A stretch of DNA of 64,000 nucleotides from sequence record MF327005; one strand, written 5' to 3'. Under the pieces are notes generated by a model. The model made no database searches and was not told the origin of the DNA. It saw only the letters and a program-made list of their open reading frames with translations. Below, in pieces: positions 15,977 through 17,284 of the stretch (positions are counted from its first letter, which is position 1; every line of letters begins with the position of its first letter). Origin of the DNA: Shigella phage Sf19. A program made the position numbers and the translations under genes.

Positions 15977-16050
15977 GCACCTATAGCCCAATTGGAAGAG
16001 GCAGCAGACTTAGAATCTGCTCAGTGTGAGTTCGAATCTCTCTAGGTGTA
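15977..16050 (+). tRNA. short (type-I-like) tRNA with Leu anticodon TAG
   Basis: acceptor gcaccta/taggtgt, anticodon arm gcaga-cttagaa-tctgc, A73, 74 nt, no long variable arm. Confidence 0.6.
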
Positions 16051-16060
16051 CCAAATTAAT

Positions 16061-16133
16061 GCAGGTGTAGCAAAATGGTTATGCGGCTGACTCTTAATCA
16101 GTAAGACGATGGGTTCAATTCCCTCCACCTGTA
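16061..16133 (+). tRNA. tRNA-Lys (anticodon CTT)
   Basis: acceptor gcaggtg/cacctgt, loop ctcttaa; paralog of 14192 tRNA. Confidence 0.7.
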
Positions 16134-16142
16134 CCAAACAAT

Positions 16143-16215
16143 GGGGATGTAGTTTACATGGTTAAAACATAAGTTTTGCAAACTTAAGTACAGGGTTCAA
16201 TTCCCTGCTTCTCCA
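16143..16215 (+). tRNA. tRNA-Ala (anticodon TGC)
   Basis: loop tttgcaa; G3:U70 wobble pair in acceptor stem (Ala identity element); CCA encoded. Confidence 0.75.
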
Positions 16216-16224
16216 CCAATTAGT

Positions 16225-16296
16225 GCATCCATAGTTTAAATGGGAAAATTACAGTCTTCCAAACTGAGGTTGAGGGTTCGATTCCCTCTGGATGCT
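16225..16296 (+). tRNA. tRNA-Gly (anticodon TCC)
   Basis: perfect acceptor gcatcca/tggatgc, loop cttccaa, T-arm gaggg-ttcgatt-ccctc. Confidence 0.8.
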
Positions 16297-16305
16297 CCAA
16301 ATAAT

Positions 16306-16379
16306 GCTGCTTTCGTATAATTGGCTATTGCACATCCCTTGTAAGGATGGAGATGCAGGTTCGAGTCCTGTGAGCAGCA
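16306..16379 (+). tRNA. tRNA-Thr (anticodon TGT)
   Basis: anticodon arm catcc-cttgtaa-ggatg, T-arm gcagg-ttcgagt-cctgt, CCA encoded. Confidence 0.8.
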
Positions 16380-16385
16380 CCAATT

Positions 16386-16478
16386 TTGAGGTCAAGTGAA
16401 AGACCGCTTGAGTCAACTGAAGACCGTAACAAATTCCACGGAGTTGAGTTAGCGGCACAGCTTCAGACCTCTTCAAAG
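16386..16478 (+). ncRNA. structured non-tRNA spacer containing GAAGACCG motif
   Basis: gaggtc/gacctc and ctgaag/cttcag nested stems; ctgaagaccgtaacaa resembles 5' end of elements A-D. Confidence 0.35.
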
Positions 16479-16549
16479 CTCGCTTAGTTTATATGGTAAA
16501 GCCCCATCCTTACAAGTTGGTGAAGAAGGTTCAAGTCCTTCAGCGAGTA
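16478..16549 (+). tRNA. tRNA-Val (anticodon TAC)
   Basis: acceptor gctcgct/agcgagt, loop cttacaa, T-arm gaagg-ttcaagt-ccttc, CCA encoded. Confidence 0.7.
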
Positions 16550-16553
16550 CCAA

Positions 16554-16628
16554 GTTCCAGTATCCCAATTGGCAGAGGATGCAAGCTCAAACCTTGTATT
16601 AGTGACGGTTCGAATCCGTCTTGGAACA
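16554..16628 (+). tRNA. short (type-I-like) tRNA with Leu anticodon CAA
   Basis: acceptor gttccag/ttggaac, anticodon arm gcaag-ctcaaac-cttgt, A73, 75 nt. Confidence 0.6.
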
Positions 16629-16647
16629 CCAATTTTAGGAGATTCCT

Positions 16648-16860
16648 ATGAAGCCTTATGGTAGACATGGTAAAGTTGAAATTGCAAGTTGTGGCTGCTG
16701 TGCAGCACATGATGGTGAAGAAGATTATTACAAATGGCGTACAGACCATCGTAAACGCTTTCTCAGAAGAGATAAGAAGAGAGCTAGACAGGAATCTCAA
16801 AAGGATATTGCAGAATTAGTTCAAATGGATAGAGCAGCAACCTACGAAGTTGTTAGTTAG
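16648..16860 (+). CDS. small Cys-rich ORF whose 3' third overlaps tRNA-Arg
   Basis: 70 aa; strong AGGAG RBS 6 nt upstream of ATG; overlap with tRNA makes it doubtful. Confidence 0.25.
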   Translation: MKPYGRHGKVEIASCGCCAAHDGEEDYYKWRTDHRKRFLRRDKKRARQESQKDIAELVQMDRAATYEVVS

Positions 16861-16883
16861 GGGTTCGAATCCTCTATTCTGCA
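16810..16883 (+). tRNA. tRNA-Arg (anticodon ACG)
   Basis: acceptor gcagaat/attctgc, D-stem gttc/gagc, anticodon arm gcaac-ctacgaa-gttgt, CCA encoded. Confidence 0.75.
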
Positions 16884-16904
16884 CCAAATTTAATAGGTAA
16901 CATT

Positions 16905-17132
16905 ATGTATAAACTCATAGTTGAAAAACATAAAGATGACCACAAGATTGAAACAGGTAGATTTGGAGATACTTTCTTTATAGCGGTTGGTTGGCAATGT
17001 GACCCGTTAGAAGTTAGAAAGATTGTTTATAACTTTGCTGGATTAGAACTTAAGCAAGCTATCTTCGAAACATCACTACCTGAAAATAAGGATACTTGCA
17101 ATAACGCATATATTCTTTCAAGAGTTCGTTAG
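16905..17132 (+). CDS. hypothetical small protein between tRNAs
   Basis: 75 aa ORF; stop overlaps first nt of tRNA-Gln. Confidence 0.3.
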   Translation: MYKLIVEKHKDDHKIETGRFGDTFFIAVGWQCDPLEVRKIVYNFAGLELKQAIFETSLPENKDTCNNAYILSRVR

Positions 17133-17203
17133 GGGATTAGTTTACAAGGTTAAAACCTCGGTCTTTGAAATCGAAGAAGATGGTTCAATTCCATCATCCC
17201 CCG
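17131..17203 (+). tRNA. tRNA-Gln (anticodon TTG)
   Basis: loop ctttgaa; unpaired 1:72 (A:C) and G73 as expected for Gln identity; CCA encoded. Confidence 0.7.
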
Positions 17204-17208
17204 CCAAT

Positions 17209-17284
17209 GCTCCATTACTCCAATTGGCAGAGAGGCCAGATTTAAAATCTGTGTTATGTATCGGTTCGAATCCGATATGGAGTA
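17209..17284 (+). tRNA. short (type-I-like) tRNA with Leu anticodon TAA
   Basis: acceptor gctccat/atggagt, loop tttaaaa, T-arm atcgg-ttcgaat-ccgat, A73; D-arm paralogous to 15977 and 16554 tRNAs. Confidence 0.6.

Follow-up and report, generated by a model that had tools for sequence, protein, structure and literature searches.

In textbooks and recent structural papers alike, bacterial leucine transfer RNA (tRNA-Leu) is type II by definition. Here we examine three tRNA-Leu genes of type I architecture, with anticodons UAG, CAA and UAA, which lie in the tRNA cluster of Shigella phage Sf19, within a 64,000-nucleotide (nt) stretch of sequence record MF327005 (hereafter the window). The leucine identity set of Escherichia coli has been reviewed by Giege and Eriani (PMC9976931) as A73, A14, A15-U48, the placement of G18G19, A20a and U54-A58, and the same list of determinants for the leucyl-tRNA synthetase (LeuRS) is given in the introduction of PMC6614811. 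According to the review, neither the anticodon nor the long variable arm is required by E. coli LeuRS, the sequence and folding of the arm were uncorrelated with leucylation in systematic evolution of ligands by exponential enrichment (SELEX), and an armless minimal tRNA-Leu was still active; for the seryl-tRNA synthetase (SerRS), the main identity element is the size of the long arm. Type I tRNA-Leu has been described from Streptomyces coelicolor, whose LeuRS charges a type I tRNA-Leu(CAA) as well as type II tRNA-Leu (Fan et al. 2019, NAR 47:6369, PMC6614811), charging of type I being conferred by the leucine-specific domain of the Streptomyces enzyme. In addition, a mycobacterial chromosomal tRNA cluster has been noted, in one sentence, to include a tRNA-Leu(TAG) with a short variable loop (Behra et al. 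2019). A search of the full-text literature, in which most subscription journals are not covered so that an earlier account is possible, returned no description of armless tRNA-Leu in phages. In the same literature the phrase 'type I tRNALeu' was found only in Fan et al., and neither phages nor short tRNA-Leu figure in a review of non-canonical tRNAs. Judging from the sequence evidence set out below, we consider it highly probable that the three phage genes encode functional leucine-accepting type I tRNAs, most likely leucylated by the host LeuRS.

Three short tRNA-Leu genes with leucine identity elements

All three genes (Table 1) matched the Rfam tRNA model RF00005 (gathering score 29) over model positions 1-71 of 71, with 56.1 bits for UAG (15977-16050), 44.0 bits for CAA (16554-16628) and 46.9 bits for UAA (17209-17284). 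The same three genes with the same anticodons are annotated by tRNAscan-SE in Shigella phage Sf18 (MF158044; Ounavirinae, genus Mooglevirus), which is 99.9% identical to the window over 15600-18500. The agreement of ARAGORN, Infernal/Rfam and tRNAscan-SE makes the anticodon register secure in three programs. Each tRNA parses into a cloverleaf with a 7-bp acceptor stem, U8 and A9, 5-bp anticodon and T stems, a 3-bp D stem (GCC/GGC in UAG, UCC/GGA in CAA, CUC/GAG in UAA), an 11-nt D loop CAAUUGG(A/C)AGA, the T loop UUCGAAU and A73 followed by CCA. In full, the D arms read GCC-CAAUUGGAAGA-GGC (UAG), UCC-CAAUUGGCAGA-GGA (CAA) and CUC-CAAUUGGCAGA-GAG (UAA), the anticodon loops CUUAGAA, CUCAAAC and UUUAAAA, respectively, and the UAG and UAA tRNAs begin with a G1.U72 pair. 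The variable regions, UCAGU, AUUAGU and GUUAUGU, are 5, 6 and 7 nt long and thus too short for a stem. Taking type II as a stem-loop variable arm of more than 10 nt and type I as a variable region of at most 7 nt with no stem, all three are type I, and all three combine a leucine anticodon (NAG or YAA) with the discriminator A73. Long arms are kept by the two tRNA-Ser and the tRNA-Tyr of the cluster, so that the arm is lost in Leu alone. The Leu-type D arm is present in the three tRNA-Leu and in no other tRNA of the cluster. The three are 67-72% identical to one another, hardly more than the 61-70% that they share with their best non-Leu neighbours, which excludes a recent triplication.

The original prediction, drawn from the sequence alone, had described short tRNAs of 74-76 nt with TAG, CAA and TAA anticodons, variable loops of 5-7 nt, a common D arm and A73. 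Each of these points holds, at coordinates that differ from ours only by the encoded CCA; no program call shows an alternative register, and careful parsing turned up no long arm. The term 'paralogous', also used there, is apt for the shared Leu-type D arm and overstated for genes of such modest identity, which are not recent duplicates.

All of the listed E. coli LeuRS determinants are present by sequence in the three phage tRNAs, including A73, A14, A15 with U48 (the last variable nucleotide being U in each case) and U54/A58. The phage D loop, C13-A14-A15-U16-U17-G18-G19-N-A-G-A, is in the same register as that of E. coli leuW (UAG), leuX (CAA) and leuZ (UAA), whose anticodons are identical to those of the phage three and which share A73 with them. 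The host tRNAs likewise have a 3-bp D stem and an 11-nt loop, (A/G)AAU(U/C)GGUAGA as against CAAUUGG(A/C)AGA in the phage, a U at the end of the variable region and, in the T loop, U54 and A58, and leuZ has the G1.U72 pair of the phage UAG and UAA tRNAs. They differ in size, being 85-87 nt with a stem-forming variable arm of 13-15 nt where the phage tRNAs have 5-7 nt, in position 9, which is G in E. coli tRNA-Leu and A in all three phage tRNA-Leu, and in position 37 of the UAG tRNA, which is G in leuW and A in the phage. G9, which takes part in the G9-G12-C23 triple described for type II tRNA-Leu (PMC12360207), is also found in the tRNA-Leu of T5 and in a type II UAA tRNA of phage Wc4-1, and is absent from the phage three.

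Codon usage was determined from the 57 window open reading frames (ORFs) of at least 120 amino acids (aa) and, for the host, from 50 kb of E. coli K-12. Leucine codon shares in the phage are TTA 25.6%, TTG 15.5%, CTT 27.5%, CTC 5.4%, CTA 9.0% and CTG 17.1%, compared with 10, 11, 9, 8, 4 and 57% in the host. TTA, TTG and CTA are thus all commoner in the phage and together account for about half of its leucine codons; given the over-use of TTA, TTG, CTA and CTT, the three anticodons serve over-used non-CTG codons. The meaning of these codons was read from an alignment of the phage thymidylate synthase (ThyA) with 85 homologues, each at most 47% identical to it. Leucine occupies 68% of the alignment at columns with phage TTA codons (n=8), 46% at TTG (n=10), 29% at CTA (n=2) and 36% at other leucine codons (n=10), compared with a non-Leu background of 7%, and it is invariant at TTA170, TTA200 and TTG76. 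These columns indicate that TTA, TTG and CTA mean leucine in the phage, and a conserved tRNA inserting another residue would therefore harm the phage's own proteins.

Conservation in the Ounavirinae and a wider leucine-specific family

The 292 phage records that closely match 15600-18500 come almost exclusively from Ounavirinae of Escherichia, Salmonella, Shigella, Citrobacter and Erwinia, and short tRNA-Leu is conserved across the genera of this subfamily. The CAA gene is identical in Felixounavirus Alf5 and Suspvirus SUSP1, where the UAA gene shows one change, in the anticodon loop; of 261 phage records, 248 keep the latter at 95% identity or more, while the 1.7 kb around it aligns only in part and mostly with 88-94% identity. 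Three short tRNA-Leu (CAA, AAG and UAA) are present in Erwinia phage phiEa21-4. At the position of the UAG gene, Alf5 and SUSP1 carry a different 78-nt short tRNA-Leu (U8-G9, variable region UGUUU), which scores about 30 bits on the family model described below. This alternative tRNA-Leu(UAG), GGGAGAU-UG-ACGGUAAUUGGUAAACCU..., with the same UGUUU variable region in Felixounavirus, Suspvirus and Pectobacterium phage Wc4-1, occupies in the two genera a slot upstream of Lys(CUU); it looks like a cassette-like allelic replacement and a second armless tRNA-Leu lineage. In Wc4-1, itself a member of the Ounavirinae, the short tRNA-Leu(UAG) adjoins an 87-nt type II tRNA-Leu(UAA) (L256, 5153-5239), so the two architectures can coexist in one phage. 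Salmonella phage FG1m (L258, about 2999-3076) carries a chimera made of tRNA-Leu(CAA) in its 5' part and tRNA-Leu(UAA) in its 3' part, with the junction in the T arm; the roughly 650 bp between them, including Arg(ACG) and Gln(UUG), is lost, and the acceptor and T stems are mismatched. The chimera evidently arose by a deletion through recombination between two paralogues, and is probably a recombination-generated pseudogene.

Beyond this subfamily, a blastn search with the 77-nt UAG tRNA matched about 300 phage records, including 98 Mycobacterium, 56 Streptomyces, 11 Enterococcus, 9 Lactobacillus, 6 Pseudomonas and 6 Cronobacter phages, together with phages of Klebsiella, Enterobacter, Acinetobacter, Gordonia and Synechococcus. 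Among the matches listed, most alignments cross the variable region, with a query coverage of 71-100%. In eight of the matched phages, a short tRNA-Leu of 74-78 nt was confirmed by annotation together with ARAGORN; features common to the matched phage tRNA-Leu are U8-A9, a GCC/GGC D stem, the loop CAAUUGGNAGA, a (U)CAGU-like variable region, A73 and often G1.U72. Unrelated phages of Enterobacteriaceae with short tRNA-Leu include Klebsiella and Enterobacter Vequintavirinae. A blastn search with the UAG tRNA found no match in 5,426 complete E. coli genomes; such tRNAs reach that host only with phages. A recent deletion derivative of a host tRNA-Leu is excluded by this result, by A9 in place of G9 and by the ancient, widespread family to which the genes belong.

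The extent of the family was gauged by scanning IMG/VR and a one-genome-per-species GTDB set with the 19-nt D-arm motif TAGCCCAATTGGNAGAGGC, which the UAG tRNA matches exactly; the CAA and UAA tRNAs keep the loop CAAUUGGNAGA and alter only stem pairs, with pairing preserved. Viral contigs with the D-arm motif UAGCCCAAUUGGNAGAGGC number at least 120, as do bacterial genomes, most of which are Actinomycetota; the bacterial taxonomic distribution is a lower bound that is possibly skewed by database order. Among the matches listed, the called tRNAs that contain the motif are tRNA-Leu without exception (112 of 112 viral, 118 of 118 genomic). Viral anticodons in this set comprise 46 tag, 28 taa, 25 caa, 8 aag, 3 cag and 2 gag, and genomic anticodons 70 taa, 19 tag, 19 caa, 6 cag and 4 gag, with lengths of 73-84 nt that nearly all fall within 74-78 nt. 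Across the unique family sequences listed, A73 is found in 201 of 202, a variable region ending in U (U48) in 197 of 203 and a 5-nt variable region in about 90%, while G3:U70 occurs in none of 203.

Covariation was assessed in an alignment of 83 distinct 74-nt viral members, including the window UAG tRNA. Of its cloverleaf cells 98.4% are paired, and each of the 17 pairs that the search motif leaves free shows double (compensatory) changes. Covariation in this alignment scores 0.877, compared with 0.206 for shuffled alignments (0 of 500 reach the observed value) and at most 0.16 for slid registers. Pairing and compensatory change of this kind indicate that selection acts on the structure of the family tRNAs. 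The same alignment served to build a covariance model, which was searched against the window, four other Ounavirinae, T4, T5 and E. coli loci, and ranked short tRNA-Leu genes first among 134 matches. It gave 87.1 bits for the UAG tRNA, a member of the training set, and 71.4 and 66.6 bits for CAA and UAA, neither of which is in the training set or matches the motif exactly. Non-Leu tRNAs reached at most 61.9 bits overall and 53.9 bits in the window, E. coli type II tRNA-Leu 46.8-55.4 bits, and the tRNA-Leu of T4 and T5 50 and 22 bits, respectively.

By record titles, 95 of the 120 bacterial loci listed belong to Actinomycetota, and in 92 of these 95 the short tRNA-Leu, mostly UAA, stands alone or nearly so (no more than two tRNAs in 8 kb). 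The remaining 25 come from Cyanobacteria, Planctomycetota, Acidobacteriota, some Proteobacteria and others, 13 of them in arrays of 5-34 tRNAs; dense examples, with up to 34 tRNAs in 8 kb, were seen in Cylindrospermum, Acidobacteriota and Cellvibrionaceae. The viral loci listed have a median of seven tRNAs. The solitary genes in Actinomycetota and the dense tRNA arrays in other phyla suggest an actinobacterial home for short tRNA-Leu, with mobile arrays elsewhere. To gain a view not selected for leucine, IMG/VR was sampled with a common non-Leu D arm, TAGCTCAGTTGGTAGAGC, as anchor, giving 120 listed loci with 592 tRNAs. In this sample 15 of 50 tRNA-Leu (one with a borderline mini-arm) are no longer than 80 nt, compared with 1 of 34 tRNA-Ser and 3 of 15 tRNA-Tyr, and the short tRNA-Leu show at least two styles, UA-GCCCAAUUGG... 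and UG-ACGGAAUUGGUAUACGU... As far as our literature search extends, this wider pattern, in which about 30% of viral tRNA-Leu in a Leu-unselected sample are short, with a Leu-specific D arm, solitary in Actinomycetota and in arrays elsewhere, is undescribed.

Probable charging by the host and competing explanations

On the reading that the three genes are leucine acceptors, they would probably be transcribed as part of the whole phage tRNA cluster, with processing left to the enzymes of the host. The host LeuRS, which neither reads the anticodon nor requires a long arm, would then most likely leucylate the short tRNAs through A73 and the core formed by the D, T and variable loops (A14, A15-U48, G18G19, A20a, U54-A58). 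Subject to modification, the UAA tRNA would decode UUA and UUG, the CAA tRNA UUG, and the UAG tRNA CUA and CUG and perhaps also CUU, supplying decoders for the non-CUG leucine codons that weigh heavily in an AT-rich phage. The reliance of SerRS on the long arm fits the retention of the arm in the phage tRNA-Ser, and its loss in Leu only, with retention in Ser and Tyr, mirrors which synthetases depend on it.

Several observations weigh against this reading. In the study of Fan et al. (PMC6614811), a transcript of the S. coelicolor type I tRNA-Leu(CAA) was not charged by E. coli LeuRS, and the enzyme is stated there to be one that 'only charges type II'. The same paper describes a crystal structure in which the C-terminal domain of E. 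coli LeuRS contacts variable-arm nucleotides 47f-47i, so that some loss of efficiency would be unsurprising, and a recent structural paper (Cho et al. 2025, PMC12360207) still terms the arm a critical LeuRS identity element. Within the phage genes, the UAA tRNA has a C27.U43 mismatch, and the UAG anticodon loop (16008-16014) has A37 in place of G37, so that m1G37 cannot form. In the viral set, family UAG tRNAs with G37 outnumber those with A37 by 28 to 14, and anticodon-loop variation in phage tRNAs has been tied to escape from anticodon nucleases (PMC10264068). Lastly, single-sequence minimum free energy (MFE) folds of the three are unremarkable, with z-scores of -0.6 to -2.1, and the UAG tRNA folded alone does not give a cloverleaf. 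Such folds are common for tRNAs, and structure was judged here by model-based parsing and covariation in preference to the MFE of single sequences.

The negative in vitro result may have a more specific cause. As far as the published account shows, the variable loop of the S. coelicolor tRNA-Leu(CAA) is ACAGC, which places C at position 48, whereas the phage tRNAs have U48 opposite A15. Since U48 opposite A15 is reportedly needed by E. coli LeuRS, C48 rather than the missing arm may lie behind the failure of that enzyme on the Streptomyces tRNA.

As to why the arm was lost, the change may represent neutral streamlining, or an adaptation towards portability between hosts, avoidance of SerRS and the tyrosyl-tRNA synthetase (TyrRS), or escape from factors that recognise type II arms. 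A bolder version, which we advance tentatively and think rather unlikely, holds that short tRNA-Leu is a mobile leucine adaptor lineage spread by phages, whose arm loss is adaptive and which, pared down to A73 and the core, can be charged by the LeuRS of many phyla, that of E. coli included despite the in vitro claim that it takes type II alone, while avoiding SerRS, TyrRS and arm-recognising host factors such as tRNA-targeting toxins and nucleases. If true, it would explain why about 30% of viral tRNA-Leu and almost no viral tRNA-Ser are armless.

Among explanations that compete with leucine acceptance, the best placed is that the genes have no use in translation, being either decaying pseudogenes or tRNA-like RNAs that act as decoys for host tRNA-targeting enzymes or as processing signals. 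The probably defective CAA/TAA hybrid of FG1m speaks for it, as does the replacement of the UAG gene by a different short tRNA-Leu in many relatives, from which individual genes appear dispensable or exchangeable. However, the CAA gene is identical and the UAA gene near-identical across genera in which the surrounding DNA has diverged to about 88-94%; cloverleaf, anticodon, A73 and CCA are all intact in the window, and compensatory change is strong across the family. The set of anticodons moreover fits phage codon usage, and a decoy would need neither Leu-specific identity elements nor exact Leu anticodons. We consider disuse improbable on this evidence.

The original prediction had left the choice between unusual leucine tRNAs and tRNAs charged with something else. 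On the latter option, UUR and CUN codons would be decoded ambiguously or reassigned during infection. The missing arm, atypical for bacterial tRNA-Leu, and the failure of E. coli LeuRS on one natural type I tRNA-Leu lend this second option some colour. Yet the codons concerned make up about half of all phage leucine codons and stand at the invariant leucines of ThyA. The 3:70 pairs are A-U (UAG), U-A (CAA) and U-A (UAA), which leaves the alanyl-tRNA synthetase (AlaRS) without its G3:U70, and the short variable region and A73 offer SerRS neither a long arm of the right size nor G73. By the identity rules in PMC9976931, UAG, CAA and UAA lie outside the cognate set of any anticodon-reading synthetase. 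Nor was a phage synthetase found: a scan of 19 window ORFs, each of 280 aa or longer, gave no aminoacyl-tRNA synthetase domain, and the annotation of Sf18 has none in the 27 kb beyond the window. A73 and the Leu-type D arm are almost invariant in a family of more than 200 members that carry all six leucine anticodons. Mischarging is accordingly very improbable, and of the two options it is the unusual leucine tRNA that is backed, by identity elements, codon match, ThyA positions and a covarying Leu-specific family. Finally, an annotation artefact, in which the anticodon register was misread or misfolding concealed a long arm, and to which the non-cloverleaf MFE fold of the UAG tRNA might point, can be dismissed, as the three programs concur and the parsed cloverleaf is backed by covariation in homologues.

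Other members of the tRNA cluster

The three genes are part of a co-oriented tRNA cluster in which the spacers flanking the Leu genes are 1-8 nt long. The tRNA-Tyr(GUA) gene annotated in Sf18 falls below the Rfam gathering score (22.8 bits) and is missed by ARAGORN, so that the cluster holds at least 26 tRNAs. A tRNA-like sequence of 68 nt with the anticodon loop CUCCAAA, a shortened D arm and G73 scored 32.6 bits on the Rfam tRNA model, above the gathering score, in a search of a short stretch; it has neither an ARAGORN call nor an annotation in Sf18, and could be either the 27th tRNA of the cluster (Trp) or a decayed tRNA. The tRNA-Ser(UGA) has A8-G9 in place of U8 and a 3' end of GCC rather than GCCA. 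The tRNA model gives it only 33.5 bits, and its 37.9 bits with the tRNA-Sec model lie below threshold. Its counterpart in phiEa21-4 is annotated as a possible pseudogene.

Two ORFs lie among the tRNA genes. The first, of 134 aa, is Cys-rich with H-N-H-like motifs (HHLDPNEKD...CSNCHRKVH) and probably encodes an HNH homing endonuclease; HNH endonucleases are also found in relatives, at varied positions within the tRNA cluster. The second is a candidate ORF of 70 aa, very basic and Cys/His-rich (MKPYGRHGKVEIASCGCCAAHDG...), whose 3' end enters the tRNA-Arg(ACG) gene at 16810-16886, and the annotation of phage SUSP1 shows a comparable overlap. A sigma-70-like consensus match (TTGACA-18-TATAGT with TG, 11/12) immediately upstream of the first tRNA is a possible cluster promoter, the count of such sites in the region being no higher than shuffled expectation. 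Downstream of the last tRNA, a terminator-like hairpin with a T run after it possibly marks the end of the tRNA transcription unit.

Outside the window, Sf18 encodes a polynucleotide kinase (gp62; 16788-17483 of Sf18 locus L380) and a macro-domain protein (19530-20324 of the same locus). In T4, polynucleotide kinase and RNA ligase mend tRNA cleaved by a host anticodon nuclease. This is a hint that tRNA-targeting defences are met by this phage group too.

Table 1 Positions of the short tRNA-Leu genes and of other features in the window, with the alternative tRNA-Leu(UAG) of relatives
Feature	Position	Strand	Basis or remark
tRNA-Leu(UAG), type I, 74 nt + encoded CCA	15977..16053	+	ARAGORN, Rfam, Sf18 tRNAscan-SE, cloverleaf parse
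tRNA-Leu(CAA), type I, 75 nt + CCA	16554..16631	+	ARAGORN, Rfam, Sf18 tRNAscan-SE, cloverleaf parse
tRNA-Leu(UAA), type I, 76 nt + CCA	17209..17287	+	ARAGORN, Rfam, Sf18 tRNAscan-SE, cloverleaf parse
Co-oriented tRNA cluster with the three Leu genes	13036..18487	+	25 ARAGORN calls, plus tRNA-Tyr and tRNA-Trp-like sequence
tRNA-Tyr(GUA), type II, 88 nt, 14-nt variable arm GUCAUUACGACUCG	13596..13683	+	tRNAscan-SE annotation in Sf18; sequence read
tRNA-Ser(UGA), type II, 90 nt, long variable arm	15634..15723	+	ARAGORN, Rfam, sequence parse
tRNA-Ser(GCU), type II, 93 nt, long variable arm	18313..18405	+	ARAGORN, Rfam, sequence parse
tRNA-like sequence, anticodon CCA (Trp)	15131..15198	+	Rfam tRNA model
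134-aa ORF, probable HNH homing endonuclease	15216..15620	+	Cys-rich and H-N-H-like motifs
70-aa candidate ORF	16648..16860	+	
Sigma-70-like consensus match, possible promoter	12979..13008	+	Consensus match
Terminator-like hairpin, then T run	18645..18662	+	Consensus match
Thymidylate synthase (ThyA)	42857-43756	-	Pfam E-value 3e-72
Alternative tRNA-Leu(UAG) of Felixounavirus, Suspvirus and Wc4-1	L255 342-416; L259 425-499; L258 2421-2498; L256 2916-2993		

Comparison with described leucine tRNAs

The armless tRNA-Leu genes reported here sit in phages of E. coli, Shigella and Salmonella, the most tractable of hosts. Should the tRNAs be charged in vivo, they would provide a natural demonstration that enterobacterial LeuRS needs no arm and would sharpen the definition of tRNA-Leu identity, in which A15-U48 and the D-loop register would be the critical features. 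The finding is not peculiar to one phage and concerns a widespread Leu-specific family, found in phages of many phyla and native to Actinomycetota. It bears on the evolution of phage tRNA sets and their movement between hosts, on the isotype models with which tRNAs are annotated, and on efforts to design Leu-type tRNA scaffolds that are compact or orthogonal.

The tRNA-Leu of T4 (87 nt) and the tRNA-Leu(UAG) of T5 (85 nt) are, like the present genes, phage-encoded in tRNA clusters and come from phages of the same host species, and both are type II, which may be the reason why the short form went unremarked. Engineered armless E. coli tRNA-Leu (Larkin 2002; Asahara 1993, 1998; Tocchini-Valentini 2000) resemble the phage tRNAs in that the arm is removed while A73 and the tertiary core of D and T loops are kept, and are reported, as summarised in the review (PMC9976931), to remain LeuRS substrates. 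They are, however, laboratory constructs studied in vitro or as suppressors, whereas the phage genes are natural and conserved and have an adapted core (A9, C13). Animal mitochondrial tRNA-Leu(UUR) is also type I, its variable loop being short, and has A73 and A14 as identity elements (PMC9976931). Mitochondrial tRNAs have degenerate D and T loops and a dedicated mitochondrial LeuRS, in contrast to the fully canonical G18G19 and T-loop elements of the phage tRNAs. The type I tRNA-Leu(CAA) of S. coelicolor is natural, has a 5-nt variable loop and coexists with type II tRNA-Leu under a single LeuRS, with U8-A14 being important. Its synthetase has an adapted leucine-specific domain and makes no use of A73, while the phage tRNAs would have to work with an enterobacterial LeuRS. 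Actinobacterial chromosomes hold tRNA-Leu genes whose 19-nt D-arm motif is identical to that of the window UAG tRNA.

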